Position numbers and translations under genes: made by a program
In this document: piece after piece, positions 4,206 to 51,293 of the stretch
Numbering within the stretch: position 1 is the first letter of the stretch
How the letters are laid out: every line of letters starts with the position of its first letter
From: a virus
Lineage: Duplodnaviria > Heunggongvirae > Uroviricota > Caudoviricetes
IMG/VR virus record: IMGVR_UViG_3300024348_000012
Strand: one strand, 5' to 3'
Length of the DNA stretch: 64,000 bases
Notes under the pieces: model-generated
Told to the model about the DNA's origin: nothing
The model's database searches: none
Seen by the model: only the letters and a program-made list of their open reading frames with translations

Positions 4206-4527
4206 TGAAATAATTGAAGCATCAAATCATATGATAGATGCTTTAGAAGAAACTGATTTCTTTATAGAGACACCATTCATAGATAGAATACCTTTGAAGA
4301 GAGCATTACAAATTGCAATGCAGAAAAAATGGGAACAAGAAGATGACATGTTTTTGAATGATGCTGAATTTTTAGAAGTTTGTCAAAGTGTATCTAACAA
4401 ATCAATAGGTAAAACGATTGAGGATTTAGTAGACAAAGGTGCATTGAATATGAGTGTAAATGAAGATGGTGAAATACTATATTCAGCAAACAAAGATTTT
4501 CAATTTGATAAAGATGAAGATGAATAA
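4192..4527 (+). CDS. hypothetical acidic protein
   Basis: ORF in the 4102 frame; the internal ATG at 4192 (MEILSEI...) avoids a long overlap with the upstream ORF. Confidence 0.4.
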   Translation: MEILSEIIEASNHMIDALEETDFFIETPFIDRIPLKRALQIAMQKKWEQEDDMFLNDAEFLEVCQSVSNKSIGKTIEDLVDKGALNMSVNEDGEILYSANKDFQFDKDEDE

Positions 4528-5908
4528 ATTATTATTAGGATTTGATGTTATGGCATATAATGGTGAAATGCCCAATTGTTTAGACCCAAAATTTTTATCA
4601 ACAATACACCAAGCTTCTGATTTTGATTATAGATTTTCAGGTGAAGGATTTAAAAAAAGATGGAATGAAGATTGGTCAATATATAATAGTGGATTTTGGG
4701 ACAATCATTCTATTAAAAAATCCATTTACGAAATAATTAAATATCATCCAAATGAAAAATGGTTTTATATGATAGAACCATTTGGAAATATAGAAGCGTT
4801 TTTTGGTAACCATCCATTTTATAATAAATTGTCTTTAGAAAACATTTCATCCGTAGCACTTAATGAAATTAAAAATGGTAATGGTAATTTATTAATTAAT
4901 TATATAGTTGATGGTGGGTTGGGTGTTACAACTAATAACTTTAAAAAAATTATAGATTTTACAAGAAATAATGATATACCAGATGAAAAAGTATACCTAA
5001 TATTTCAAGATTTTAATTTATCTGAAAATATAAAAAGTTTGGGAGTAAATTATAATGTTATTGATTATAATTGGGCACATCATTTAAAATCAACCGAATT
5101 TTGGAATACTATAAACATTCCAAATTGGAGTTTTTGGCCAGAAGATGCATATGAACCCCAATTTGGTAAAATGGAAAAAGTAAAAAGTTCTATTGCATCG
5201 TATGATGAATTTGAAGAATCAATCGGTAAAGATAAAAAAGATTTTCTATTTTTATGTAGACATTGGAAAAAACACAGATTACATATATTGGATATATTAT
5301 ACAAATTAGGATTTGAAAATAATTTAGTTAGTTGGGATAATAGATTTTTTGATACCAATTCAGTAAACCATTACTATATAGATGCAAACAATACTGAAAT
5401 GATTGAGTTGATTAAAAACACATCAAAACATTTGGATATTGAAGATATAACTAAAATTGCAGGATATGGATATGAAGATAAAAATCTATATTTAAATTCT
5501 TATTTGAGTATTGTATCTGAATCCGTTTTCTTTCAAAATGAAATTGATTTCCCAACAGGTTATTTAAGTGAAAAAATTTGGAAACCAATTGGACATTCAC
5601 AAGCATTCGTATTGGCAGGGCCGGCAAATTCATTGAAGTATATTCAAGATATGGGATATAAAACATTTCATCCATATATTGATGAAAGTTATGATAGTGA
5701 AATGGATGATTTGAAACGAATGAATATGATTCTAATAGAAATTGAAAAGTTTTCTAATAAAACAAAAGAAGAAAAGGATGAGTTTTTGAATAATGTAAAA
5801 GATATTGTAAAATATAATCAAGAATATTTTTTAAATTATGCAGAAAAAAATAGCCCAAAAAATATAAACGATATTGTATGGAATTTAACAAAACCGACAA
5901 AGATTTAA
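4514..5908 (+). CDS. fucosyltransferase-like (GT10-like, GT-B fold) glycosyltransferase, paralog A
   Basis: C-terminal YLNSYLSIVSESVFF...GYLSEKIWKPIGHSQAFVLAGP parallels the FucT motif YxFxLxFENS...TEKxW...VPVVLGP; HxxR-type motif CRHWKKHRLHIL upstream; three paralogs elsewhere in the window. Confidence 0.5.
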   Translation: MKMNKLLLGFDVMAYNGEMPNCLDPKFLSTIHQASDFDYRFSGEGFKKRWNEDWSIYNSGFWDNHSIKKSIYEIIKYHPNEKWFYMIEPFGNIEAFFGNHPFYNKLSLENISSVALNEIKNGNGNLLINYIVDGGLGVTTNNFKKIIDFTRNNDIPDEKVYLIFQDFNLSENIKSLGVNYNVIDYNWAHHLKSTEFWNTINIPNWSFWPEDAYEPQFGKMEKVKSSIASYDEFEESIGKDKKDFLFLCRHWKKHRLHILDILYKLGFENNLVSWDNRFFDTNSVNHYYIDANNTEMIELIKNTSKHLDIEDITKIAGYGYEDKNLYLNSYLSIVSESVFFQNEIDFPTGYLSEKIWKPIGHSQAFVLAGPANSLKYIQDMGYKTFHPYIDESYDSEMDDLKRMNMILIEIEKFSNKTKEEKDEFLNNVKDIVKYNQEYFLNYAEKNSPKNINDIVWNLTKPTKI

Positions 5909-28869: not shown

Positions 28870-30327
28870 ATGAAGGCAGTATTAATATCTACGGATTACA
28901 TTAAAACAGCAACGGGTGAATATAAGGTTTTAGAAATAAATACAAGTACAAGAATCGTAGCGGCCGATAATGAAGGAAATCTACCGGGATTAGACTGGTC
29001 AAATCTAACTACCTTTATCCAAACTAATGGATTTACAAATGTACATTGTATAATACCAATGTACGATAAAGGGTTTGCAACTAAATTAAGTGAAATATGT
29101 GATAACATTGGTGGAATTACATTTCTTTCACATGAAACAAGTGGTACTTCAATTACTGTTCCATATATTGAAGATAACGAAACTACTCTTATTTTGAGAG
29201 TTTCATATGATACTACTGCAATTGTTGATGATGAGTATTGTAGAGATAATTATTCTTTCTTAAGAGCAATTAATGAATTAACAACAAAACCAAAAACTTA
29301 CATACCAAACATATCCGACGATTTTGAAAATTTATCAGAATTTAACTATACATTAGATTTACCGAATTTTATTATTAAAAAACGATATCCAAATTATGAT
29401 AAAAATGAATTCCCTAAATTATATAAAGTACAAAATTTAACCGAACTAACACAATTAAAAGGGTTAGTTAATGTTAATACGGAATTTTTACAAGAATTTA
29501 CAAATTCAGAAATTCTATCAAACAAAAGAAGTATTATCAGAGGAATTGATATAATATATGGTTCTAATTTAGATGTAATTAGTATGGGTGGATATAAAGT
29601 ACTTCATGCAATCACAGAAAATATATGGAGTAACACATTTGGAGATTTAGGACTATTAGCTAAAAAAGATAGACCAAAATATATTACATATTACTCACCA
29701 ACATCCGATAGAGCTACATATATTTACGATGAAGACCAAGAAGTTTTAATGGCGGATGGTAGTAGAAAATCATTTGCGGAATTAGAAGTGGGTGATTCTG
29801 TAAAATCAATAAATATCCCATCATTACCAGTAAATGAGACCGAATATAAAGTGGAGGAGTGGACAGGTAGTCATACTGATTTCACTACAAATTTTGCAGT
29901 TAGTGAAACAGCTATTGTTGTAAAAACTACACAAACAACATCTGATTTATTTATTAGAATTACATTAGAAGATGATATTGTATGGGATGATTTACCCGTA
30001 ACCCACCTTCTTGTTAAGAATGATGATGTTATAAGATTTAAAAATGTTAACAATTTGCAAATTGGTGATGTATTAGAATTATTTAGTACGGAAACCGAAA
30101 CTATTGTAAATAAAACAATTACTAATTTAGAAATATTATTTAAAGAAAATGAAGTAGTTGGAACTATGGATGTTGAACCTTTAGATTTGTTCTTACCATT
30201 AGTAACAAACTCATTCGCTATCGTTCAACACAATGCATGTAATGCAAACTTTTGTTCAAGTTTCGGAGGACAATGTTACAATTATGGTAAATGTGGTGAT
30301 TGTGGATATTATCAATGTGCTAAATAA
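28870..30327 (+). CDS. Hint (intein/pretoxin-HINT-like) domain protein with C-terminal 30-aa six-Cys tail
   Basis: Residues about 292-455 show Hint blocks: N-terminal VLMADGSRKSFAELEVGDSV (the Cxx[DG]T...G...I.eL..GD.V pattern with Val at position 1), TGSHTDF, and C-terminal MDVEPLDLFLPLVTNSFAIVQHN (blocks F/G ending in HN). Followed by ACNANFCSSFGGQCYNYGKCGDCGYYQCAK. Confidence 0.5.
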   Translation: MKAVLISTDYIKTATGEYKVLEINTSTRIVAADNEGNLPGLDWSNLTTFIQTNGFTNVHCIIPMYDKGFATKLSEICDNIGGITFLSHETSGTSITVPYIEDNETTLILRVSYDTTAIVDDEYCRDNYSFLRAINELTTKPKTYIPNISDDFENLSEFNYTLDLPNFIIKKRYPNYDKNEFPKLYKVQNLTELTQLKGLVNVNTEFLQEFTNSEILSNKRSIIRGIDIIYGSNLDVISMGGYKVLHAITENIWSNTFGDLGLLAKKDRPKYITYYSPTSDRATYIYDEDQEVLMADGSRKSFAELEVGDSVKSINIPSLPVNETEYKVEEWTGSHTDFTTNFAVSETAIVVKTTQTTSDLFIRITLEDDIVWDDLPVTHLLVKNDDVIRFKNVNNLQIGDVLELFSTETETIVNKTITNLEILFKENEVVGTMDVEPLDLFLPLVTNSFAIVQHNACNANFCSSFGGQCYNYGKCGDCGYYQCAK

Positions 30328-30494
30328 AAAATATTAATTATGGAAATTATACAAAACGAAATCGTTGAATTAACAATTACAGAGAAATCAGAAATTGCAA
30401 CAATATTTCAAAATATTATAACAAATATAAAAACTGATATTACAAATCAGTAAAAATATTTGGTAATTCAATTTTTTTTTATTATATTAGTGTT

Positions 30495-31875: not shown

Positions 31876-33075
31876 ATGAATATCGTTATTGTAGGAGGAG
31901 GAACTGCCGGATGGATTACTTCTTTATTTTTACTTTCAGAATATAAAAATAGTAATATCACAGTTATTGAAAGTGATGTTATTGGTATATTGGGTGCAGG
32001 AGAAGGCTCAACACCACTAATGAAAAAATTCTTAAAGAAATGCAATATTGATGAAAACGATTTCATTAACAAAACGAAATCTACTTTTAAATTGGGTATT
32101 GATTTTGAAAATTGGAATGTTTGCAACAAATCGTATAAACATCCATTTATAAATGATTCCAAAGCATATCATTTTGATGCAAGACTAATTGCAGAATATT
32201 TTAAACAAATATCAATTAATAGAGGTGTAACTCACATAAATGGAATTGTAAAATCTTTTGTTCAAAATGATAAAAAAGATATTACCAATTTGGTATTATC
32301 GGATGATACAACAATACCAACTGATTTTGTATTTGATTGTTCAGGATTTCATAGATTACTAATCGGGAAATTATATAATTCAAATTGGGTTTCGTATTCA
32401 AATCATTTAAAAGTAAATACGGCCGTTCCATTTTTCTTAGATAGAACGGATACTAATATGGAATTGGATACCAAAGCAATTGCGATGGATTATGGTTGGA
32501 TGTGGCAAATTCCATTACAACATAGATGGGGATGTGGGTATGTATTTGATGGTAATAGAATAAACGAAATACAGGCCAAAGAAGAAATTGAATTAAAATT
32601 AAATAGAAAAATACAATCACCAAAGACATTAAAATTTTCAGCAGGTTATTATGATAATGTGTGGGTTAATAATTGTATTGCTATGGGATTAGCTAGTGGG
32701 TTTTTAGAACCATTGGAAGCAGTATCAATCCACATTACACTTATGGAATTGAATTTAATTAAAAACCATTTATTTAAAGATAACGATACTAATATAGTTA
32801 ATGAAAAATTTTCACAAATAATGGATGAACATTTTTTATTTATATATTATCATTATTTGTGTAATAAAAAAGATACAGAATTTTGGTCAGATTATAATTT
32901 GATTAGTGCACCATTGGAGTTACACAAATTTGTTAAAAAAGATTTAAACATATCGTTTAGTTCCGATGAGGATTATATTTCTAAATTCAAATATAATGAT
33001 GTTGTACAATATACACACTACGATTGGAAACTTATAAATGATGGAATTTTTGGTTTAAATAAATCTTTATTATGA
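31876..33075 (+). CDS. flavin-dependent halogenase (tryptophan-halogenase family)
   Basis: MNIVIVGGGTAGWITS (FAD GxGxxG), ITVIES...ILGAGEGST, the signature YGWMWQIPL (WxWxIP), and AMGLASGFLEPLEAVSIHI (the halogenase GxxSGFxEPLES block). Confidence 0.8.
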   Translation: MNIVIVGGGTAGWITSLFLLSEYKNSNITVIESDVIGILGAGEGSTPLMKKFLKKCNIDENDFINKTKSTFKLGIDFENWNVCNKSYKHPFINDSKAYHFDARLIAEYFKQISINRGVTHINGIVKSFVQNDKKDITNLVLSDDTTIPTDFVFDCSGFHRLLIGKLYNSNWVSYSNHLKVNTAVPFFLDRTDTNMELDTKAIAMDYGWMWQIPLQHRWGCGYVFDGNRINEIQAKEEIELKLNRKIQSPKTLKFSAGYYDNVWVNNCIAMGLASGFLEPLEAVSIHITLMELNLIKNHLFKDNDTNIVNEKFSQIMDEHFLFIYYHYLCNKKDTEFWSDYNLISAPLELHKFVKKDLNISFSSDEDYISKFKYNDVVQYTHYDWKLINDGIFGLNKSLL

Positions 33076-33440
33076 TTGAAACAATAAACATAAATACCAA
33101 ATTATATGTCAAATATATTGATAATATAAAAGGATTTGGTGTATTTGCAAATCATATAATTAAAAAAGACGAAATTATTGAAGATTGTTATTCTTTATTA
33201 ATTCATAATACAAATTCGGATTACGAACCTTATTATTTTTATTTTAAAGGTGACACTAAATTATTACCATTAGGATTTGGTTCTATTTATAACCATAACA
33301 ATAATCCAAATATAGCTTGGAAAATCGTAGATGATAATCGTAAAATAATTAGATTTTATGCAATAACCGACATCAATATCAATGAGGAATTGTGTCATAA
33401 TTACGGCCCTAATTATTGGAAAAATAAAAATATATTATAA
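33072..33440 (+). CDS. SET-domain protein methyltransferase
   Basis: GFGVFANHIIKKDEIIEDC...IYNHNNNPNIAW...NEELCHNYGPNYW (SET N-region, NHxCxPN-like and ELxxxYG post-SET-like motifs); about 120 aa as in viral vSET. Confidence 0.55.
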   Translation: MIETININTKLYVKYIDNIKGFGVFANHIIKKDEIIEDCYSLLIHNTNSDYEPYYFYFKGDTKLLPLGFGSIYNHNNNPNIAWKIVDDNRKIIRFYAITDININEELCHNYGPNYWKNKNIL

Positions 33441-34123
33441 TGAATACACTTTGGACATTTGGTGATAGTTTTACATTTGGTCATGGTTGTAGAGAAGATT
33501 GTAATTCATATACCGTAGATGATTATTATGGTTACAAAAAAGAAGGAGATGACATCTGGCCCAACCATTTAGGTAATTTGTTAAATTGTAAGGTTAGTAA
33601 TTTAGGAAAAAACGGAGTATCAAATGATTATATTTTAGATGCAATAATAGATAATTTTGATTTTATAAAAGAAAATGATTATATTATAATAGGAAAAACA
33701 TTCCATGGTAGAATTGAAGTACCTTTTAATAATAAAATTTATAAATCCTTTGCACATTATGAGGGTGGTAAGATAGATGAAAATACTAATAGTAAAGATA
33801 TATGGATAAAAAATGAATTTAAAGATTTAAACAAAGAAGTGATAGAAACAATTATTAATTTTCAATATTATTTTTCAAATGAATTATTTTATAAAGAACG
33901 AAATAATAAAAGATTTGAATTTATTAAGAATAGATTGCATAATGAAAAAAATGTAAAGTTTTCTTATATATGGGGAATAGAAGAAGATAAAAATTTTTAT
34001 CACACATTTCAACAAATAATACAGGCAACTAATGGCAAAGTAATTGATACACATTTTTCTTTTAAAGGTCACTTAGATTTTGCACATTTTATTTATAATA
34101 AAATTAATACCAAAATAATATGA
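33440..34123 (+). CDS. SGNH/GDSL-family hydrolase
   Basis: N-terminal TFGDSFTFGHG (GDSx block I), conserved Gly/Asn blocks and a distal DxxH-like motif. Confidence 0.55.
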   Translation: MNTLWTFGDSFTFGHGCREDCNSYTVDDYYGYKKEGDDIWPNHLGNLLNCKVSNLGKNGVSNDYILDAIIDNFDFIKENDYIIIGKTFHGRIEVPFNNKIYKSFAHYEGGKIDENTNSKDIWIKNEFKDLNKEVIETIINFQYYFSNELFYKERNNKRFEFIKNRLHNEKNVKFSYIWGIEEDKNFYHTFQQIIQATNGKVIDTHFSFKGHLDFAHFIYNKINTKII

Positions 34124-34665
34124 TTAAAAAAAAATTGGGGTTTACAACATATTGTTATGATGAATTTATAACAATAGAAGAACAATCTGAAATTAAAAAA
34201 TGGGCATTAGATAATGAAAATAAAATGCCACCGAATATGTCTGGCCCGTATAGAAGATTTAGTAGATTGGATAGTTTTAATAATATACCGAATATAATAC
34301 ATACTATAAAACAAAGAGTTATAGATGTTGAAAATATAAAAAATGTAATGGAAGCACCACAAAATGCCGATTGGGTAGGTATTCAATGGGAAAATGCCTT
34401 TGTTGAACCACATTTAGATGACAATGGCAACAATAAAAATTATTATACCAGACGATATAATATACTAGTATCATATCCTGAAGAAGGAGGCCAACCTATA
34501 TATGGTAATGAAATTTTAGAAGTTAAAGAAAGAATGATGTGGAGATGTGATGCGGGTTTAATTGAACATTCTAGTATACCAAATAAAGGAAAAATACCTA
34601 GAATTAATTTGTCTTTTGGATTTTTAATGCCAATAAAAACTACAACTAAAAAATCTTTATTATGA
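34120..34665 (+). CDS. 2OG-Fe(II) oxygenase, P4H-like
   Basis: EPHLDD (HxD), GGQPIY, IEHSS (distal His), RINLSF. Confidence 0.55.
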   Translation: MIKKKLGFTTYCYDEFITIEEQSEIKKWALDNENKMPPNMSGPYRRFSRLDSFNNIPNIIHTIKQRVIDVENIKNVMEAPQNADWVGIQWENAFVEPHLDDNGNNKNYYTRRYNILVSYPEEGGQPIYGNEILEVKERMMWRCDAGLIEHSSIPNKGKIPRINLSFGFLMPIKTTTKKSLL

Positions 34666-35222
34666 TATATCAACAAAAAATATTTACAAAAGAGGAATGT
34701 CAAACCATAATAGAGTACCATAAAAAATATACCGACTTGGAAGGTTGGTTTCCCTCAAAATACATTGACGGCCAACGAATAAAAGATAACCACAATCTAA
34801 TGGCATATGAAGTATATAATATACTTAACAATGCAGAAACAAATTGGTTTTTTGTAAAATTATTTAATTGGTTTAGTGAAGTTAGCGGAATTAAAATTGA
34901 TGAAACTAATAAGTTACCAAAATGTACCTTACACAGATATACCATTGGTGACCATTTTGCAAAACATATAGATTTAATGAAGGGATACGAAGAAAGAAGA
35001 TATAATTCAGGCATACAACTGAATGATGAATACGATGGTGGTGAATATGTGACTTGGGATGCGCTGGGTAAGGAAATATTAATATCAAAAGAACCTGGCA
35101 CAGCTGTAGCGTACAGTTCTACAGTTGAACATGAAATAAAAGAAATAACAAAAGGAGAGAGATGGTCTATTGTGATGCCCATAACAAAATACAATATAAT
35201 TGAAAAGAAAAGTTTTATATAA
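34662..35222 (+). CDS. 2OG-Fe(II) oxygenase, P4H-like
   Basis: KHIDLMK (HxD), YDGGEYVTW, VEHEIK, GERWSIVMP. Confidence 0.6.
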   Translation: MIYQQKIFTKEECQTIIEYHKKYTDLEGWFPSKYIDGQRIKDNHNLMAYEVYNILNNAETNWFFVKLFNWFSEVSGIKIDETNKLPKCTLHRYTIGDHFAKHIDLMKGYEERRYNSGIQLNDEYDGGEYVTWDALGKEILISKEPGTAVAYSSTVEHEIKEITKGERWSIVMPITKYNIIEKKSFI

Positions 35223-35893
35223 TGTCAATATTAATTAAAAATGATATAATATGGGTTTCAATTCCAAAATGTGCATCAATGTCAATAGAGGATGCGTTGT
35301 TGAATTCTAAGTTGGACATAGAGAGACATTCCTATGCAATTAAAAGTGAACCACTACATACACACATTGGTATCCGTAAATTAAAAGAAGAATTTGGTGA
35401 TAAAAAAACTATATGTATAAAAAGAGATTGGTTTGAAAAGTGGGTAAGTGCCATTCAGTTTTGTTTTGAAACCATAATACCAACCGATGGAAATCTACCA
35501 ATCAAAAAATGGGAAGATATTGATAATGATTTTATTTATTCAATATTTACGGATGAATTTATAAATTTATTATATTCCGAAAAAACGGATTCATTAAATG
35601 AGTGTTATAGTAGATTGATTGTAAATGGAAAAGTAACAGAAACAAATAGATTGTCCGTACTATTTTCCCAAAATTATTGGAAAGAGGATAACAAATGTGA
35701 TTATGAATTTGACATAAAAGATATGGATAAATTTGTTTCTTTCATAGAACAAAAATATGGGGAAAAATTAATAATTCGTAAAATAAATGAAAATCCAAAA
35801 ACAAAAAGTAAATTAGTTTTAAATGATGAACTAAAAGAGTTTATTTGGCAAAAGTTTGAAAAAAGATTTTCTAAAAAAAGTTATTTATTATAA
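35222..35893 (+). CDS. sulfotransferase-like protein (putative)
   Basis: N-terminal IIWVSIPKCASMSIEDAL resembles the PAPS 5'-phosphosulfate-binding loop (PKxGxT) of Sulfotransfer_2-type enzymes; weak. Confidence 0.35.
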   Translation: MSILIKNDIIWVSIPKCASMSIEDALLNSKLDIERHSYAIKSEPLHTHIGIRKLKEEFGDKKTICIKRDWFEKWVSAIQFCFETIIPTDGNLPIKKWEDIDNDFIYSIFTDEFINLLYSEKTDSLNECYSRLIVNGKVTETNRLSVLFSQNYWKEDNKCDYEFDIKDMDKFVSFIEQKYGEKLIIRKINENPKTKSKLVLNDELKEFIWQKFEKRFSKKSYLL

Positions 35894-36384
35894 TGTTTAC
35901 TAAAGAAGAATGTGAAAGAATAATTTATTTAGCTCAGTCATCTTTAGTGGATTCTAAATTATATTTTAAATATGATGATAATATAAAATATAAAGTATCT
36001 AATATCAAAAAAGATGAAACTACGGATTGGATATTTGATAAAATGCTTGTATTTTTTACAAACAGAACTGGTATTAAAATAAAAAAATCATTGAATATTT
36101 TACATGTTCACAATTATAAAACAGGAGATTATTTTAAAAAACATAGAGATGATTTACACCCAACACAAATACACAATATAGGTGTTTGTTTAAATGATGA
36201 TTATGTAGGTGGTGAATTTATTTTATATGAACCATATGAAATATTACCAAAAAAACAAGGTGAGATATATACATTTGAAAGTTTAAGATTACATGAAGTT
36301 AAAAAAATAGAAAGTGGTGAAAGATGGAGTATAATTGCATTTTTACATAATGAAAATTTAGAACTAAAAAAAACACTATTATGA
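35893..36384 (+). CDS. 2OG-Fe(II) oxygenase, P4H-like
   Basis: KKHRDDLHP (HxD), YVGGEFILYEP, LRLHEVKKIESGERWSIIAF. Confidence 0.6.
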   Translation: MFTKEECERIIYLAQSSLVDSKLYFKYDDNIKYKVSNIKKDETTDWIFDKMLVFFTNRTGIKIKKSLNILHVHNYKTGDYFKKHRDDLHPTQIHNIGVCLNDDYVGGEFILYEPYEILPKKQGEIYTFESLRLHEVKKIESGERWSIIAFLHNENLELKKTLL

Positions 36385-36914
36385 AAATCGGTATAACTGG
36401 ACACTCTAAAGGATTGGGAGAAGCAATTTATAATAAATTAAATAAAATGAATGAAGTTATTGGATTTAGTAGAACAAATGGATACGATATTCAATCACCA
36501 AATAATATAATAGAAAAATTAGAAAATTGTGATATTTTTATAAATAATGTGTATTATGAAACCCATCAATCTAATTTATTTTTTAAATTATTTCAAAAAT
36601 GGAACGATTTAGAAAAAACGATAATTAATATAAATAGTAGTTCTATACATCAATCGGGCGCATGGAATCCTTTATATGTTGCAAACAAAAAACATTTAAA
36701 AGATATTACACAATCTCTAATTGATAAATACCCACAGAAAAAATGTAGAATTATTAATTTAAATTTGGGTACATTAGATACACATAAAAACTTTGAAACT
36801 TTTAATAAAATCGAAGTATCTAAAGTTGCGGAAGTAGTGGAATGGTGTATAAATCAACCACATGGTATTGAAATACAAGAATTAACAATATTACCAACAA
36901 CACAACTAAAATAG
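36381..36914 (+). CDS. short-chain dehydrogenase/reductase-like NAD(P)-binding protein
   Basis: MKIGITGHSKGLGEAIYNKL (TGxxxGxG Rossmann motif); short (177 aa). Confidence 0.45.
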   Translation: MKIGITGHSKGLGEAIYNKLNKMNEVIGFSRTNGYDIQSPNNIIEKLENCDIFINNVYYETHQSNLFFKLFQKWNDLEKTIININSSSIHQSGAWNPLYVANKKHLKDITQSLIDKYPQKKCRIINLNLGTLDTHKNFETFNKIEVSKVAEVVEWCINQPHGIEIQELTILPTTQLK

Positions 36915-36943
36915 ATGTTATTGACACTTGAAAAAATAATAAT

Positions 36944-37762
36944 ATGAAAATTTTAAAATATTGGAAGCCTGACGGGTTTGAAATTTCCTCTTACAAATAC
37001 TCATTAAAAGAAAAAGCAAATCAAATACATACAACGTGTGGTGAAGATAATACTAATCTATGTACCTACACCTACAATGAATTAGGATTTAGGGGTGACA
37101 GTATAAAAAAAGAAGGGTTTAAGGTAATGTCATTAGGTTGTTCAATTACCGAAGGGGTTGGTGTAAATGATAATGAAACGTGGACATCTCAATTCACAAA
37201 TTTAGTACCAAATTCAGTAAATTTAAATTTTGGTGTTTGTGGTAGAAGTAATGATTTTATAGTAAGGTGTTTGTTAAGTTACTATGATTTAATTAAACCA
37301 GATTTGGTATTAATTATGTATACATACTCAACTAGAAAAGAAATATATACAAATGATGGGGGAGTTGAACCATATATGGCAACATCTGCATGGGGATATA
37401 TGCAAGAAACTGAAGATGGTAGACTTATTCAAAAAAATTTACTTGAAATACAAAACGATAATGAAGATTTTATAAATTGGTATAAAAATCATCAATTGAT
37501 AAAATTATTTTTAGAATCTAAAAAGTGTAATTTTATTTGGAATGGTAGTTTGATTCGTTCTAATTATAAAGATGAATTTAGATATGATGGTGATTTTTTC
37601 TTAAATGTATTAGATAAAGGAGTGGATAATAAACATGCAGGCCCAAAACACCTTAAAAATTATGCAACAAAGTTATACGACCATATCAATAATAATTTTC
37701 CTCATTTTTTATTAAATGATAAAACTAAATTAAATATTAAAAATAGTAATAAATTAATATAA
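36944..37762 (+). CDS. SGNH-hydrolase-like protein (putative)
   Basis: FKVMSLGCSITEGVGVN resembles SGNH block I (GDS replaced by GCS); distal His near C-terminus. Confidence 0.4.
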   Translation: MKILKYWKPDGFEISSYKYSLKEKANQIHTTCGEDNTNLCTYTYNELGFRGDSIKKEGFKVMSLGCSITEGVGVNDNETWTSQFTNLVPNSVNLNFGVCGRSNDFIVRCLLSYYDLIKPDLVLIMYTYSTRKEIYTNDGGVEPYMATSAWGYMQETEDGRLIQKNLLEIQNDNEDFINWYKNHQLIKLFLESKKCNFIWNGSLIRSNYKDEFRYDGDFFLNVLDKGVDNKHAGPKHLKNYATKLYDHINNNFPHFLLNDKTKLNIKNSNKLI

Positions 37763-38323
37763 ATGGTAATTACAATCCTTGCAGAACCAAGAAGTGGTTC
37801 AACTAATTTAGCTAATTGGTTTTATTTTAATAAAGACTTTACAATATTATATGAACCAATTACCAGTCCAAAATGGAAATGGTATAAGCATGGTGTATCA
37901 CCAAAATTATGGGAATATAACACTTCTCATTTATTAGTTAAAGAAATTTTTAGACCAGAAACAGATTTTTCTGAATTAATAGAAATATCTGATAAGGTAA
38001 TTATTTTATATAGAGAAAATATAATTGAACAAACCGAATCTTGGTTAAATGCTAATAAAACAAATAATTGGGATAAAGCATGGGTATTTAAAGAAAATTT
38101 AATAAAAAATGAGGATGCATCATATTTTAATCAAATAAAATCCGGATTAAAAGAAAATTATTTGAATAAAGATTATTTTAATATATCATACGAAGAATTA
38201 TATTATAATAATGGTTTTGAAAAAATATTAAATTATTTAAATATAGACGAATTAGAAAATAAAAACTTTCCTTACGGAGAGAAATATAGAATAAATGTTA
38301 ATAAACCAAATACCTTAATATAA
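37763..38323 (+). CDS. sulfotransferase (Stf0/Sulfotransfer_3-like)
   Basis: MVITILAEPRSGSTNLANWF matches the PAPS-binding PRSGST(T/L)L 5'-PSB loop; size about 190 aa, typical of Stf0-type. Confidence 0.5.
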   Translation: MVITILAEPRSGSTNLANWFYFNKDFTILYEPITSPKWKWYKHGVSPKLWEYNTSHLLVKEIFRPETDFSELIEISDKVIILYRENIIEQTESWLNANKTNNWDKAWVFKENLIKNEDASYFNQIKSGLKENYLNKDYFNISYEELYYNNGFEKILNYLNIDELENKNFPYGEKYRINVNKPNTLI

Positions 38324-38324
38324 A

Positions 38325-38356
38325 TTTGGTAATGTCAATTATTTGTCGTATATTAG
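38325..38356 (+). promoter_or_regulatory. conserved phage promoter box
   Basis: tttggtaatgtcaattatttgtcgtatattag. Confidence 0.5.
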
Positions 38357-38384
38357 AGTATTATAAACAATTAAACTCTAAATT

Positions 38385-39032
38385 ATGAAACAAAAGACAG
38401 AACAAGAATTGAAAGCAAATTATGACCGATTTATAGGTATAATTAAGAAGTATTTTAAAGGAGAAAGATTGGAGAAATTACTCCATATGTATTCCGAAGA
38501 AGAATTGGGTGTAAATTTAACCCTATCACCGGCGTCCGGCTCAAAACACTATCATAATGGGTATATAGGTGGGTATATTGACCACATCTTTAATGTATGT
38601 AAGAACGCTCTTAAAATGAGAGACCTGTTCGTAATGCAAGGTGGAGAGATTGATTTCACCGAAGAAGAATTGATATTTAGTTGTCTACATCACGACTTAG
38701 GAAAGTTGGGTATTAAAGGTGAATTACATTACCTACCAAACCAAGAAGAATGGTCTCAAAAGAAATACGGAACTTTATTTGTTCGTAATGAGAAGATACC
38801 TTATATGACTTTAACCGATAGAACTTTCTTTACACTAAACGACTATGGTATTACTTATAATGAGAAAGAGTATTTTGCAATCAAACTTACTGATGGTATG
38901 TATGACGAAGATAATCAAAAGTATTTAGCAGGTCACGACTTAAAGAAACAATTAGTTTATAAGTTACAATTTATTATGCATTGGGCAGACCATATGTCTA
39001 CAATCATTGAAAGACAAGATAACGTAATTTAA
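38385..39032 (+). CDS. HD-domain phosphohydrolase
   Basis: HYHNGYIGGYIDHIF ... LHHDLGKLG (H...HD...D metal-binding motifs). Confidence 0.65.
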   Translation: MKQKTEQELKANYDRFIGIIKKYFKGERLEKLLHMYSEEELGVNLTLSPASGSKHYHNGYIGGYIDHIFNVCKNALKMRDLFVMQGGEIDFTEEELIFSCLHHDLGKLGIKGELHYLPNQEEWSQKKYGTLFVRNEKIPYMTLTDRTFFTLNDYGITYNEKEYFAIKLTDGMYDEDNQKYLAGHDLKKQLVYKLQFIMHWADHMSTIIERQDNVI

Positions 39033-39152
39033 TGACACATTTTCCGATTTGTAACAAAGTAAGTGTAAAATTGTCATAACTTTGTAACGGAGTAAGAGAT
39101 GGTATAGTATTTGGACTATATAGAATATTATTAACTAAAAAACATTTATATT

Positions 39153-39530
39153 ATGTACATGATTGATTACAGTAAGTTATTTGAAGAGTTCTTTAATGAA
39201 CCAAAAACAACAACTTATGTTCCAAACAAATTCGCAGTAGACATTAAAGACGAAGTCGCGAGTATTGCACTATCAGTATTAGGACACAACCCAGAGGATA
39301 TTGAAATTAATTGCTTTGAGGACAAGATTGAAATTAAAGCTAAAAAAACACAAGAGGATAAAGAAAGTCCTTTTAATCAATTGGTTTCGGATATTGAAGA
39401 AAGAATCCAAGTAGGCAAAAACTTTGATGGTAAAAAAGCAAAAGCTGAGATTAAAAATGGAATTCTCTTAATTACACTTGAAAGAAAAGAAGAGTCCAAA
39501 CCAAAAAAATTAACCCCAAAATTAGGTTAA
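39153..39530 (+). CDS. small heat-shock protein (Hsp20/alpha-crystallin domain)
   Basis: AVDIKDEVASIALSVLGHNPEDIEINCFEDKIEIKAK ... AKAEIKNGILLITLERK (the ACD AxxxNGVLxIxxPK-like end). Confidence 0.55.
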   Translation: MYMIDYSKLFEEFFNEPKTTTYVPNKFAVDIKDEVASIALSVLGHNPEDIEINCFEDKIEIKAKKTQEDKESPFNQLVSDIEERIQVGKNFDGKKAKAEIKNGILLITLERKEESKPKKLTPKLG

Positions 39531-39555
39531 TTCAGTTATTTTTTGTATATTACAA

Positions 39556-39586
39556 AGGTAGAAGAGTCATTACTTCTACCTTTTTT
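39556..39586 (+). terminator. rho-independent terminator
   Basis: GGTAGAAG-agtcatta-CTTCTACC followed by TTTTTTT. Confidence 0.6.
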
Positions 39587-39608
39587 TATTTATTAAATAT
39601 TTATAAAC

Positions 39609-39785
39609 ATGATATACAACGAAAAAATACAAATGTTATTGGAATCTTTAGACGGTAAGTTGAGGATTTTGCAAAATGGAATTACAGGTGCACAACATAT
39701 GTCACCTTCTGAAGCTCACACTACATTGGAAGATGCAAGAAAGATAGCTGAACGAATTTCCGAATTAACACGAATCAATAGATAA
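39609..39785 (+). CDS. hypothetical 58-aa protein
   Basis: Small ORF filling the gap; its stop abuts the next ATG. Confidence 0.3.
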   Translation: MIYNEKIQMLLESLDGKLRILQNGITGAQHMSPSEAHTTLEDARKIAERISELTRINR

Positions 39786-40964
39786 ATGAATTGGCTTAAA
39801 TATTTAGTCGGATTTTCTGCACTAATTATCGCCGGTTGTGCAGCATTTTTCTCCGTAACAGGATTGGGTGTTCTATTTAGTGGAGCATCAACCGCAGTAA
39901 TGGTAATGGCCGGGTCATTGGAATTTGCTAAATTAGTAGCAGCAACCTATCTTAAACAAAAATGGGATGAAATTAAGGGTTTTAATAAGTGGTATTTAGT
40001 ATCTGCTGTTGCATTACTAATGTTAATCACATCTGCAGGTATCTTTGGTTACCTTTCTAATGCTTTTCAGGCACAATCACTTAAATTACAACAGGTAGAT
40101 AGGGAAATTATGGTTCATTCTACTAAAATTGACCAAAATACTACTCAAATCACTCAATTATCAACACAAATTAGTGAGTTTAATAAAAATCAAGGTAAAA
40201 TATTAGATGGTGGTAAGGTAAATTCTCGTCTTATTCGTTCAATAGACAATAGAGATAAAGAAATTGCTAAAATTAACAAAAAAATTAGTGATTTACAAGA
40301 CCAAAACGCAAAAGAAAACGAAAAAATCAACGAAATTAAAACTACTAATATAGATTTAGAAAAAGAAGTAGGTGGTTTTAGGTTTGTAGCAGAAGCATTC
40401 GGTGTAGAACTGAAAAATGTTGTAAAGTTCTTCATATTTTTGATTGTAATCGTATTTGACCCATTGGCAGTTGCTTTAATTATCGCATTTAATGGTATGG
40501 TTGGTGAAACAAAACGAAAACAACGAAAACTTTTAGGTGAAATTATGGAAAATGATGAAAAATTGAGCTTATACGATAATTTGGATGATTTGATGGAAGA
40601 AAACTACAAAAATTACCAAATATACGGAGATAATGGAAAATATTCTACAAAAGAGGATAAAAATGAAGTTATAGTGGAAAATATTCTTAACGAAACGGAA
40701 AAAAATGAGATTAACGAAAAAAAAGAAGATACAAATGTTGAATCTACTGATGTTGTGGTTGATGTTACACCTGCTTCTGAAATTATAGAAGAAACCCCAT
40801 CATTAAAATGGGAAGAATACATGCATCCAGAATTCCAATGGCAAAAAAGAAATTTGTGGATAAATAACCCAAAGGCAGTTAATTATTGGTTAAAATCAAA
40901 AGGTGGAACCGTTAGAGAATTGGCAAAATTCAGAAACGAAGAAGAAAATATCAAAACTTATTAA
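39786..40964 (+). CDS. membrane protein with central coiled coil
   Basis: Three N-terminal TM helices, long coiled-coil (heptad-like QITQLSTQISEFNKNQ...), another TM (VVKFFIFLIVIVF), acidic C-terminus. Confidence 0.45.
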   Translation: MNWLKYLVGFSALIIAGCAAFFSVTGLGVLFSGASTAVMVMAGSLEFAKLVAATYLKQKWDEIKGFNKWYLVSAVALLMLITSAGIFGYLSNAFQAQSLKLQQVDREIMVHSTKIDQNTTQITQLSTQISEFNKNQGKILDGGKVNSRLIRSIDNRDKEIAKINKKISDLQDQNAKENEKINEIKTTNIDLEKEVGGFRFVAEAFGVELKNVVKFFIFLIVIVFDPLAVALIIAFNGMVGETKRKQRKLLGEIMENDEKLSLYDNLDDLMEENYKNYQIYGDNGKYSTKEDKNEVIVENILNETEKNEINEKKEDTNVESTDVVVDVTPASEIIEETPSLKWEEYMHPEFQWQKRNLWINNPKAVNYWLKSKGGTVRELAKFRNEEENIKTY

Positions 40965-49268: not shown

Positions 49269-51293
49269 ATGGCACTTAAACCTTTAGATAAAAGTTGGGG
49301 AAATCAAAATAAAAATTTTAATTATGTTGGCAAAGATTTTGCAACATTGAAACAAAATTTAATTGATTTTACTAAAACTTATTTTCCGGATTCATACTCC
49401 GATTTTAGTGAAGCTTCACCTGGTTCTATTTTTATAGAACAGGCAGCTGCAATTGGAGATATGTTATCTTTTTATCAAGATACCCAATTAAAAGAATCAA
49501 TACTATCATATGCAAGTGAAAAGAAAAATGTGTTAGCATTGGCACAATCCATGGGATATAAACCCAAATTAACATCACCTGCAGTAACTACATTAACTAT
49601 ATATCAAATAGTTCCAAGTATTGGATTGGGTACGTTAAATAAACCAGACGATAGATTTTATCTTAAAATAAAAGATGGACTACAAATTGATTCTAATAAC
49701 GGAGTAACTTTTAGAAGTACAGATATAGTTGATTTTTCATTAGCAGACGGTAGAGAAATTGATGTATATGAGAGAGATACAAATACACAAGAACCATCTA
49801 GATATTTAATTACTAAAAAAGTAAAAGCAATATCTGCAACTGAAAAAACTACAACGATTTCATTTACTACAAATGATGTAGATTATCCAACGGCCACGAT
49901 TGTTGATTCAAATATAATTGCAATAAATTCGGTTGTTGATGAAGATAATATAAAATATTATGAAGTACCTTATTTGGCTCAAGAAACTATTTTTGTAGAA
50001 CAACCAAACACATCATACAATTCAAAACTATCAGAATATTCAAATACAGTACCATATATTTTAGAAGTACAAAAAGTACCTAGAAGGTTTTCTGTAAAAG
50101 TAAATTCTGATGATAGTATTGATTTACAATTTGGTAGTGGTGATGTTACTATGTCGGATGAAAGAATATTACCAAACCCAAAAAATGTAGGATTAGGATT
50201 GGCTAATTCGGTTAATAGATTAAATCAAGGTATTGACCCTTCTAATTTTTTAAAAACAAATACATTTGGAATAGCACCCACAAATACAACATTGACTATA
50301 AAATATTTAGTAGGTGGTGGTGTTGAATCAAATGTAAATACTGGTGATTTAAATAGAATTAGTAGAATTGAATTTGAAGAAGATTTACTATCCTTAAGTG
50401 ATACCGATTTGAGAATATATAATGATATAAAAAATACAGTAGCAGCTGAAAATTTAGAACCTGCAGTTGGTGGTAGGGGTGCAGAATCAATAGATGAAAT
50501 TAGAAATAATGCAATTGCAATGTTTGGTTCTCAAAATAGAGCAGTAACTAGACAAGATTATATTGTAAGAGCTTTATCAATGCCTGAAAGATATGGTAGT
50601 GTTGCAAAAGTATATGTTAGTCCTGATGGTGAAGTTGACAATAATAGTCCTGCTTCAATACTTGCAAATCCAAAAAATATTGCTGAATTTACAAATTTAG
50701 TAGATGGATTGAAAACAAAATCTAAAACAGATATTCAAAAAGAATTGATTAAATATTTAACTCAAAAACAATCCAATGTTGCAGAAAATAATAATCCATT
50801 TGCAATTAATATGTATGTTTTAGGATATGATTTAAATAAAAATTTAACAAATTTAAACTTAGCCGTAAAACAAAATCTAAAAACATATTTAGGTGAATAT
50901 CGTATGATAACAGACGCAGTAAATATGATTAATGGATTTATTATAAACATTGGTTGTGATTTTGAAATTATATGTTATTCAAATTTTAATAAAAGAGAAG
51001 TTATTACAAATTGTTTAAATCAATTGAAAGATTATTTTAATATAGATAATTGGACATTTAATAAACCAATAAACATTTCAGAAATAGAATTAATTCTTGC
51101 GAATGTAGAAGGAGTTATGAGTGTACCATCCGTTAAGATTTCAAATTTATGCAGTGAAGCTGGAACAAATTATTCACCAAATAAATATAATATAGATGAA
51201 GCAACTAAAGGTAAGATTGTCTATCCTTCTTTAGACCCATCAATATTTGAAGTTAAATTTCCTAACAAAGACATAAAAGGGAGGGCTTTATAA
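49269..51293 (+). CDS. baseplate wedge protein gp6-like (baseplate J family)
   Basis: N-terminal FATLKQNLIDFTKTYFPDSYSDFSEASPGSIFIEQAAAIGDMLSFYQD...ALAQSMGYKPKLTSPAVTTLTI parallels T4 gp6 (FAEIKQNLIEW...DYDFEGS...AQDNGYLPTSKSAAQTEI). 674 aa versus 660 aa; directly follows gp25. Confidence 0.75.
   Translation: MALKPLDKSWGNQNKNFNYVGKDFATLKQNLIDFTKTYFPDSYSDFSEASPGSIFIEQAAAIGDMLSFYQDTQLKESILSYASEKKNVLALAQSMGYKPKLTSPAVTTLTIYQIVPSIGLGTLNKPDDRFYLKIKDGLQIDSNNGVTFRSTDIVDFSLADGREIDVYERDTNTQEPSRYLITKKVKAISATEKTTTISFTTNDVDYPTATIVDSNIIAINSVVDEDNIKYYEVPYLAQETIFVEQPNTSYNSKLSEYSNTVPYILEVQKVPRRFSVKVNSDDSIDLQFGSGDVTMSDERILPNPKNVGLGLANSVNRLNQGIDPSNFLKTNTFGIAPTNTTLTIKYLVGGGVESNVNTGDLNRISRIEFEEDLLSLSDTDLRIYNDIKNTVAAENLEPAVGGRGAESIDEIRNNAIAMFGSQNRAVTRQDYIVRALSMPERYGSVAKVYVSPDGEVDNNSPASILANPKNIAEFTNLVDGLKTKSKTDIQKELIKYLTQKQSNVAENNNPFAINMYVLGYDLNKNLTNLNLAVKQNLKTYLGEYRMITDAVNMINGFIINIGCDFEIICYSNFNKREVITNCLNQLKDYFNIDNWTFNKPINISEIELILANVEGVMSVPSVKISNLCSEAGTNYSPNKYNIDEATKGKIVYPSLDPSIFEVKFPNKDIKGRAL

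Follow-up and report, generated by a model that had tools for sequence, protein, structure and literature searches.

The 64,000-nucleotide stretch of DNA analysed here, hereafter called the window, belongs to the virus record IMGVR_UViG_3300024348_000012 (Caudoviricetes) of IMG/VR and originates from a T4-like, lytic and uncultivated phage. Among its genes, an open reading frame (ORF) of 485 codons encodes a protein, referred to below as the main protein, composed of three consecutive parts, namely a circularly permuted ATP-grasp-like domain, a domain with a Hint fold and a cysteine-rich tail of 30 residues, the polypeptide chain ending with AIVQHN followed by ACNANFCSSFGGQCYNYGKCGDCGYYQCAK (Table 1). 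The main protein is probably a self-processing precursor, which would cut off its own six-cysteine tail by the C-terminal half of the intein chemistry. A preliminary description of the region 29743-30327, which corresponds to residues 292-485, had reported a Hint region followed by a six-cysteine C-terminal segment of 30 residues. Both the ORF and the segment (residues 456-485), with its conserved cysteine framework, are confirmed, and the N-terminal domain, a 37-residue downstream ORF and a linked zinc-ribbon-like protein, all absent from that description, have been added.

The assignment of residues 285-455 to the Hint fold is secure on the basis of structural modelling, because the AlphaFold2 (AF2) model of residues 274-485, built from an alignment of 90 homologues, is a confident one, with a predicted local distance difference test (pLDDT) of 84.7 and a predicted template modelling score (pTM) of 0.82. 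The model displays the β-fold of the Hint superfamily and is superposable on intein, Hog or bacterial intein-like (BIL) structures, BIL2 of the ciliate BUBL locus (PDB code 6tmm) occurring among its top structural matches. The Hint domain announced in the preliminary description is thus supported by structure prediction, one of the checks proposed there, and another of these checks, a hidden Markov model (HMM) search against Hint, Intein_splicing and PT-HINT, returned no model above threshold. None of the Pfam gathering thresholds (Hint, Hom_end_hint, Intein_splicing, PT-HINT, Hint_2 and Vint) was reached by the main protein, the sub-threshold matches consisting of Hom_end_hint (E 0.014, 15.8 bits for a cut-off of 32.1) and Hint (E 0.037, 14.0 bits for a cut-off of 29.7). 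Similarly, PF01079 was matched below threshold by 19 of the 90 homologues, and the only NCBIfam match, a weak one (E 1e-3), covers block A and involves an intein-containing radical-SAM model. No intein was matched by the Hint region in a single-sequence phmmer search against the PDB. The family profile aligns end-to-end but weakly with the PhoCDC21-1 intein (E 0.58), an alignment which serves to fix the register and not as evidence of homology. Some relatives contain a second Hint domain (Hint2) in addition to that shared with the main protein (Hint1). A global hhalign comparison of the Hint1 family with Hint2 sequences was discarded as mis-registered, with the second half of Hint1 placed on the first half of Hint2 (probability 4%), which probably reflects the internal pseudo-two-fold symmetry of the Hint fold.

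The conservation of the catalytic residues was read from alignments of 20 and 90 family members, the larger set including sequences with as little as about 28% identity in the Hint-tail region. Residues H454, N455 and D439, together with five cysteine residues of the tail, are invariant in the 90 sequences, E436 does not vary among the 20 sequences and is conserved in at least 90% of the larger set, and the motif [QMEVL..]HN is present across the wider family. H454-N455 corresponds to the C-terminal His-Asn (block G) of class 1 inteins, and the occurrence of this dyad directly before the six-cysteine tail, as previously described, holds true, the dyad being selectively kept. In inteins, the block-G His and Asn residues, aided by residues of block F, drive the cyclisation of the asparagine (PMC4031507). 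Block F of the main protein reads MDVEPLDLF, in which the invariant D439 aligns with the block-F His residue of the intein motif 'HNF'. At the opposite end of the domain, position 1 corresponds to I285, the C1A residue of PhoCDC21-1 being aligned opposite the 'I' of YIYDEDQEVLMADG. It varies within the family (I, V, T, H), where class 1 inteins possess Cys, Ser or Thr. The lack of a nucleophile had been correctly recognised but position 1 had been assigned to V292, seven residues off. Within the block-B region (residues 366-383), W372-x-D374 is conserved but there is no conserved TxxH, and His379 is not conserved either. The segment 'TGSHTDF' (331-338), formerly taken as block B, has to be abandoned, His335 being located at the start of a helix in the AF2 model and giving way to F, Y, L, V or I in the homologous sequences. 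N-terminal cleavage and splicing, which had been declared impossible, can indeed not take place, because position 1 is an Ile residue and block B has been lost. The +1 residue, Ala in the main protein, is unconstrained in the family (Ala is the commonest, then L, P, V, T, G, Y and others), in agreement with a cleavage that involves no transesterification, like that of BIL domains (PMC4031507). As judged from the alignments, Hint1 is devoid of everything needed for the N-S acyl shift, and the residues of the C-terminal Asn cyclisation are under strict purifying selection. With H454, N455 and D439 invariant beside a drifting position 1 and block B, a decayed, non-catalytic Hint domain is therefore not expected.

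The tail of the main protein contains six cysteine residues at positions 457, 462, 469, 475, 478 and 483, according to the pattern C-x4-C-x6-C-x5-C-x2-C-x4-C-AK, and is the sole stretch of the + strand of the window with at least 6 Cys per 32 residues. In full-length relatives ending with such a tail, the motif [Q/M/E..]HN is followed by 1-2 residues and then by Cys, the tail comprising 21-68 residues (median 31). The number of cysteine residues is even in 169 tails out of 171 and odd in two, tails with 6 Cys being predominant (128) over those with 8 (34) or 10 (5). Outside the cysteine residues, pairs of proteins that are at least 80% identical overall share a tail identity of 0.60, versus 0.84-0.85 for both domains, and for pairs at 45-60% overall identity these values fall to 0.19 and about 0.5, respectively. 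In these alignments, the cysteine framework is thus conserved and the loops are hypervariable, the evolution of the non-Cys tail residues being far more rapid than that of the remaining protein. The even parity of the cysteine residues leads to the expectation of a disulfide pairing and agrees poorly with Zn(Cys)4 sites; three disulfides are accordingly predicted for the six-cysteine peptide. The spacing of the cysteine residues falls within the generic ranges of inhibitor cystine knot (ICK)/knottin peptides and is not diagnostic. Trp is absent from the tail of the main protein, which contains four Tyr residues, and many tails from distant clades are Trp-rich.

The family to which the main protein belongs is large, unnamed and effectively restricted to viruses. 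Metagenomic homologues amount to 463 sequences in a word-indexed search and to 548 clusters at 50% identity in an exhaustive HMM search, and relatives occur on at least 249 IMG/VR contigs, some of them reaching 339 kb. Comparison of the main protein with Pfam, PHROGs, PADLOC and NCBIfam revealed no family, and no homologue bears a name. A tblastn search of 50,697 INPHARED phage records gave no match, and a single match, on a 5-kb contig of a metagenome-assembled genome (MAG), was found in GTDB with one genome per species (185,579 prokaryotic species). This contig (L085, JABJFP010000318.1, from a 'Methanobacteriota archaeon' MAG) probably represents viral DNA that was binned with an archaeal MAG.

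Depending on the relatives, four architectures are encountered. In the commonest one (a), which is that of the main protein, Hint1 is followed by the Cys-rich tail alone. In architecture (b), represented by about ten proteins (P0108, P0111, P0113, P0116, P0132, P0134, P0135, P0141, P0145 and P0147), a segment of 26-35 residues with 6-8 Cys precedes a canonical Hint domain (Cys1, 'TIGH', 'HNY..NILVHN') that matches Intein_splicing and PT-HINT; the PF07591 matches of P0108, P0111, P0113 and P0116 fall on this extra second Hint domain and not on Hint1. In architecture (c), the Cys-rich segment is followed by an autocleaving domain of the Peptidase_S74 type, an intramolecular chaperone. P0186 matches PF13884 after its Cys-rich segment (25.3 bits for a cut-off of 22), and about ten other members were recognised by BLAST (P0187, P0157, P0151, P0155, P0166, P0099, P0154, P0238, P0158 and P0159). 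PF13884 is absent from the main protein. Architecture (d) consists of arrays of 2-4 canonical Hint domains separated by spacers of 0-7 residues (most 0-5), e.g., in P0230 (906 residues), P0223, P0235, P0241 and P0274, with junctions such as 'HN/YY/CFPAGT' and 'HN//CFVAGT'; P0264 possesses a Cys-rich spacer and P0252 a Cys-rich end. The occurrence of two unrelated self-cleaving modules on the far side of the same peptide is hard to explain unless the peptide is excised, and architectures (b) and (c), as deduced from the sequences, represent the strongest support for its release. Since Peptidase_S74 normally assists the folding of trimeric fibres, the question of a trimerisation arises for the relatives of architecture (c).

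The N-terminal domain (residues 1-283) and Hint1 form the constant part of the family in all 548 clusters. The domain is confidently modelled (pLDDT 86.3) and, at the structural level, adopts an ATP-grasp fold, the closest structures being the glutathionylspermidine and glutathione synthetases, which join an amine to the carboxylate at the C-terminus of a thiol peptide. No ATP-grasp family was matched by its sequence in Pfam and the PDB, ATPgrasp_ST was matched by a single member out of 90 (E 0.045), and a Foldseek search of the BFVD viral structures returned nothing at E ≤ 1e-3. Many charged residues of the domain are invariant (several Arg and Asp), including E22-x-N24 in 'KVLEINT', a motif that we take to resemble the Mg-binding E-x-N motif of ATP-grasp enzymes; these residues are compatible with an active site, as far as conservation can tell.

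In this respect, the freed peptide could be joined head-to-tail, or to a protein, a peptide or an amine, by the ATP-grasp-like ligase. This extension, which is compatible with the release of the tail and which we regard as rather doubtful, recalls the BUBL loci of ciliates (Tetrahymena), organised as BIL1-ubiquitin-like-BIL2, in which the upstream Hint domain frees the N-terminus of the cargo and the downstream one activates its C-terminus as a thioester. The two-Hint relatives P0111 and P0113 share this layout, with an upstream Hint domain ending with HN and a downstream Cys1 Hint domain, and in such relatives the joining could depend on the thioester of Hint2 instead of the ATP-grasp-like domain. 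They differ from the BUBL loci by their Cys-rich cargo of 26-35 residues, devoid of a ubiquitin fold, and by the additional ATP-grasp-like domain, and the main protein has no second Hint domain at all. A ligation is favoured by the constant association of Hint1 with a domain rich in invariant acidic and basic residues, by the reaction catalysed by the closest structural relatives of this domain, and by the Lys residue found among the last four residues of 142 tails out of 171. It is disfavoured by the absence of an ATP-grasp family match at the sequence level, by the +1 residue, which is not the Cys expected for a cyclisation of the native-chemical-ligation type, and by the tandem-Hint relatives with spacers of 0-6 residues, which do not fit a model of peptide cargo.

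The genes surrounding the main gene were mapped onto 84 related loci from IMG/VR and assemblies, the small ORF located downstream being counted over 67 loci. In 65 of these 67 loci, all clades included, the main gene is followed at a distance of 2-38 nt by a homologous ORF of 36-52 residues, the other two loci having no downstream DNA. The consensus of these ORFs in distant clades reads ...ERPAQTIK..APISSELKTKVATAFQAVVTAIKVKHLS. Two relatives, P0029 (371 residues) and P0106 (274 residues), have their N-terminal part joined directly to the downstream small ORF, ending with ...IATIFQSLITNIKTDITNQ; they lack most of the Hint domain and the tail, look like in-frame deletion fusions, and could be either deletion variants of natural origin or chimeras due to assembly. 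The zinc-ribbon-like gene adjoins the main gene on the same strand in 75 of the 84 loci, downstream in the clade of the window but immediately upstream in distant clades; its linkage therefore survives rearrangement. Its product shows the invariant residues R29, C33, C36, C52, C55, C57, P58, K62, C71 and W76 (C-x2-C...C-x2-C-G-C-P...C...W). At most 7 kb separate the main gene from the gene for the 204-residue protein resembling 2-oxoglutarate (2OG)-Fe(II) oxygenases in 65 of the 84 loci, and a halogenase-like gene is found nearby in 45. The halogenase-like protein also resembles, though weakly, LodB and QhpG, two flavoenzymes whose targets are Trp residues in peptides or proteins. In distant clades, the genes usually follow one another as halogenase, oxygenase(s), Zn-ribbon, main gene and small ORF, and the conservation of this gene module across rearranged gene orders supports the release of the peptide. 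The tailoring of Tyr residues by adjacent enzymes had been proposed in the preliminary description. Sulfation is rejected, because the scan of the neighbours revealed no sulfotransferase, whereas for halogenation the linkage of a halogenase-like gene is real but partial.

Table 1. Location of the main gene, of the parts of its product and of the linked genes in the window.
Feature	Position	Strand	Evidence or remark
Whole ORF: ATP-grasp-like domain, Hint domain (predicted cleavage-only), Cys-rich tail	28870..30327	+	ORF list
Residues 1-283: circularly permuted ATP-grasp-like (amidoligase-like) domain	28870..29718	+	
Residues 285-455: Hint fold, I285 at position 1, no block-B TxxH, block F at 433-441	29722..30234	+	
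Codons His454-Asn455, predicted scissile dyad; predicted cut N455/A456	30229..30234	+	Invariant in 90/90 aligned homologues
Residues 456-485: 30-aa tail, predicted released peptide	30235..30324	+	Cys kept, loops hypervariable
Small ORF, 37 aa, MEIIQNEIVELTITEKSEIATIFQNIITNIKTDITNQ	30340..30453	+	Starts 13 nt past main-gene stop
Zinc-ribbon-like partner protein, 91 aa	30495..30770	+	phrog_13558 E 6e-9; weak DUF6171, FtrD-like and Zn-ribbon matches
Two 2OG-Fe(II) oxygenase-type genes, 165 aa and 204 aa	30767..31875	+	2OG-FeII_Oxy_3 E 1.9e-6 and 5e-3; PHROG 2OG-Fe(II) oxygenase
Flavin-dependent (Trp) halogenase-like gene, 399 aa	31876..33075	+	Pfam Trp_halogenase E 1e-91
SET-domain gene, 122 aa, loosely linked	33072..33440	+	Pfam SET E 2.9e-13; present in close clade and L001

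Beyond the halogenase-like gene, a long run of small co-directional genes (33072-40964, + strand) forms a dioxygenase island of the cyanophage type, as depicted in passages of PMC2938197; besides the SET-domain gene, it contains four or more other genes of the 2OG-Fe(II) oxygenase type, a truncated ORF resembling short-chain dehydrogenases and a number of ORFs without family. The window as a whole is AT-rich (25-36% GC), with nearly all coding sequences on the + strand. Its T4-like myovirus genes include a baseplate wedge gene (49269-51293) with 41% identity to Microcystis phage Mel-JY01, and its auxiliary genes include those for UvdE, a peptide deformylase, a carbamoyltransferase and many 2OG-Fe(II) oxygenases. 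A 1542-residue ORF located downstream of the baseplate genes (56056-60684, + strand) presumably encodes a structural or fibre protein. An ORF of 482 residues (4460-5908), considered as a paralogue of the main gene, was rejected, being unrelated on comparison. In the two-Hint phage contig L001, a 375-residue product (886-2013) with a Pfam match to RuBisCO_large is encoded near cupin, nucleotidyltransferase and carbamoyltransferase genes.

The small ORF also invites a reading of the locus as a cassette resembling polymorphic toxins, in which the Hint domain would free a small, variable, toxic or antimicrobial peptide and the small ORF would encode its immunity or neutralising partner. In pretoxin-HINT proteins (PF07591; Zhang et al. 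2012, PMC3482391), the Hint domain similarly precedes a variable C-terminal module, presumably released by autoproteolysis, and a small gene lies directly downstream. The succession of a constant N-terminus, a Hint domain and a hypervariable C-terminus parallels these toxins, and the small ORF, almost always a close neighbour of the main gene, shows a rate of divergence similar to that of the tail (identities between close pairs of 0.78 and 0.72, respectively, versus 0.88 for the body of the protein). As a signature of immunity, however, the co-variation of the small ORF with the tail is uninformative, both evolving fast, and the small ORF contains no Cys and no evident features of a binding partner. 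Moreover, the N-terminal part is enzyme-like, Hint1 is not matched by the PT-HINT model (PF07591), no secretion, RHS or filamentous delivery module is present, and no PADLOC or toxin family was matched. The payload is a tiny Cys scaffold of 30 residues rather than a toxin domain, and the genes of this virus-only family reside in lytic T4-like phages instead of loci of bacterial competition. The assignment to pretoxin-HINT or polymorphic toxins, suggested in the preliminary description, is thus not retained, and the toxin cassette appears quite improbable.

Several observations weigh against the self-processing of the main protein and the proposed fate of its tail. An Asp residue (D439) stands in for the block-F His that usually aids the Asn cyclisation. 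In many inteins this cyclisation is slow unless a branched intermediate is formed (PMC4031507), and such an intermediate, to judge from its residues, cannot form in Hint1. Furthermore, a Pro residue occupies the +1 position in 15 homologues. The tail itself is modelled at low AF2 confidence (pLDDT 51-66) and carries a CxxC motif, and its matches among PDB sequences are limited to insignificant zinc-ribbon-like ones, the best being the zinc ribbon of bL32 (E 2.4); a binding of metal by the tail is therefore possible. The main protein has no signal peptide, so that disulfides would need to form after lysis or with help, the cytoplasm being reducing. Finally, the linkage of the halogenase-like gene is partial, and such phages commonly carry dioxygenase arrays whether or not the main gene is present, according to passages of PMC2938197.

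Some of these observations would suit a protein that is never cleaved, in which the Hint domain would be a dead structural or adaptor domain and the tail an attached zinc-binding or redox module serving the ATP-grasp enzyme, e.g., for oligomerisation or target binding. The loss of the N-terminal catalytic residues, the sub-threshold HMM matches of the Hint domain, the invariant CxxC of the tail, accompanied by a second CxxC pair in distant clades, the zinc ribbon as best, though insignificant, PDB match and the reducing cytoplasm all agree with this explanation. It accounts badly, however, for the invariance of the HN dyad exactly at the end of the domain while other catalytic positions drift, and for tail loops whose hypervariability is unlike a conserved metal-site module. 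Cysteine numbers of 6, 8 and 10, even in nearly all tails, fit disulfides better than Zn(Cys)4, and a second autocleaving domain past the tail, as in some relatives, makes little sense for a permanent C-terminal finger. An uncleaved tail is accordingly considered unlikely. The autoproteolytic release of the C-terminal peptide, already proposed in the preliminary description, is strengthened by the architectures, by the evolution of the tail and by the even parity of its cysteine residues. Whereas the folds, conservation, architectures and gene linkage have been computed, we infer the cleavage itself, the disulfides, the modifications and the extracellular role.

With respect to the systems known so far, the Hint domain of the main protein differs from class 1 inteins by the lack of Cys, Ser or Thr at position 1, of TxxH and of a +1 nucleophile, so that no ligation of exteins is possible. 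It is not inserted in a conserved host protein either, and is fixed in every full-length member inspected. It comes closer to the BIL type A domains (Amitai et al. 2003; Dassa et al. 2004; reviewed in PMC4031507), which similarly end with His-Asn and dispense with a +1 nucleophile. However, BIL-A domains possess a Cys residue at position 1 and generate a thioester at their N-terminus, whereas the Hint domain of the main protein, with an Ile at its variable position 1 and no TxxH, would be capable of the C-terminal reaction only. In addition, it belongs to a phage gene and is associated with a fused ATP-grasp-like domain and a Cys-rich payload of 30 residues.

Other features recall the gene clusters for peptides made on ribosomes and modified after translation (RiPPs), with a variable core and linked genes for a Zn-ribbon protein, an oxygenase and a halogenase, even though any modification of the peptide is putative. 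In the enzyme-fused RiPP precursors known as borosins (OphMA), a modifying enzyme and a short variable C-terminal core belong to the same polypeptide. The main protein resembles them by its enzyme-like domain, its variable C-terminal peptide and the tailoring-type enzymes encoded nearby. It differs by a release that would be autocatalytic, via the Hint domain, instead of depending on a separate protease, by the ATP-grasp-like nature of the enzyme and by the putative character of the modification. The region downstream of the main gene, with its 2OG-Fe(II) oxygenases, Trp-halogenase-like flavoenzyme and SET domain, also resembles the tandem dioxygenase/tryptophan-halogenase arrays of cyanophages, for which a modification of peptides or secondary metabolites has been proposed in passages of Iyer et al. 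2010 (PMC2938197). No peptide substrate is named in these passages, whereas the family of the main gene, linked to such genes in 45-75 of 84 loci, offers a candidate substrate.

According to the self-processing reading, which we hold to be the probable one from conservation and architecture, the precursor would fold and the side chain of Asn455 would then attack its own backbone carbonyl to form a succinimide, with the assistance of His454 and probably of Asp439 and Glu436. The bond N455-A456 would be broken, which would yield the peptide ACNANFCSSFGGQCYNYGKCGDCGYYQCAK, its N-terminus being free, and an ATP-grasp-Hint body ending with a succinimide. The subsequent steps are speculative. The freed peptide might form its three disulfides and be tailored by the linked products, i.e., the 37-residue ORF product, the zinc-ribbon protein, the 2OG oxygenases and, in many phages, the flavin halogenase. 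It would perhaps be ligated or cyclised by the fused ATP-grasp-like domain, and might reach the outside at lysis and act beyond the infected cell.

Taken together, these steps would amount to a virus-only, self-contained system of peptide maturation of a hitherto undescribed kind, associating in one polypeptide a permuted ATP-grasp ligase, a one-sided Hint domain serving as 'asparagine lyase' and a hypervariable core of its own, resembling a cysteine knot, the peptide being cyclised or conjugated, tailored and released at lysis; in some relatives, the thioester of a second Hint domain would replace the ATP-grasp-like domain for the cyclisation or conjugation. So complete a scheme has, in our opinion, only a small chance of being correct. 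Its product would be a phage-made disulfide-rich peptide, possibly cyclic or halogenated, acting on other cells.

Toxins, Hedgehog ligands and ubiquitin-like cargo count among the products known to be released by Hint domains, and the proposed Hint-mediated release of a C-terminal module resembles the working of BIL-A and pretoxin-HINT domains. The novelty consists of a one-sided Hint domain, retaining only the Asn-cyclisation half, fused to a permuted ATP-grasp-like domain and a hypervariable mini-peptide in a conserved phage gene module. The libraries and literature searched revealed no natural Hint domain restricted to Asn cyclisation, dedicated to the shedding of a hypervariable disulfide scaffold of about 30 residues and always associated with a fused ATP-grasp-like domain. 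If the cleavage is true, the family would provide a compact, nucleophile-independent self-cleaving tag, together with a natural library of phage-made small Cys-rich peptides, whose roles in phage-host or phage-community interactions could be tested. The family may also supply the missing peptide substrate of the dioxygenase/halogenase arrays of cyanophage-like myoviruses, the function of which, to follow passages of PMC2938197, has been open since 2010.

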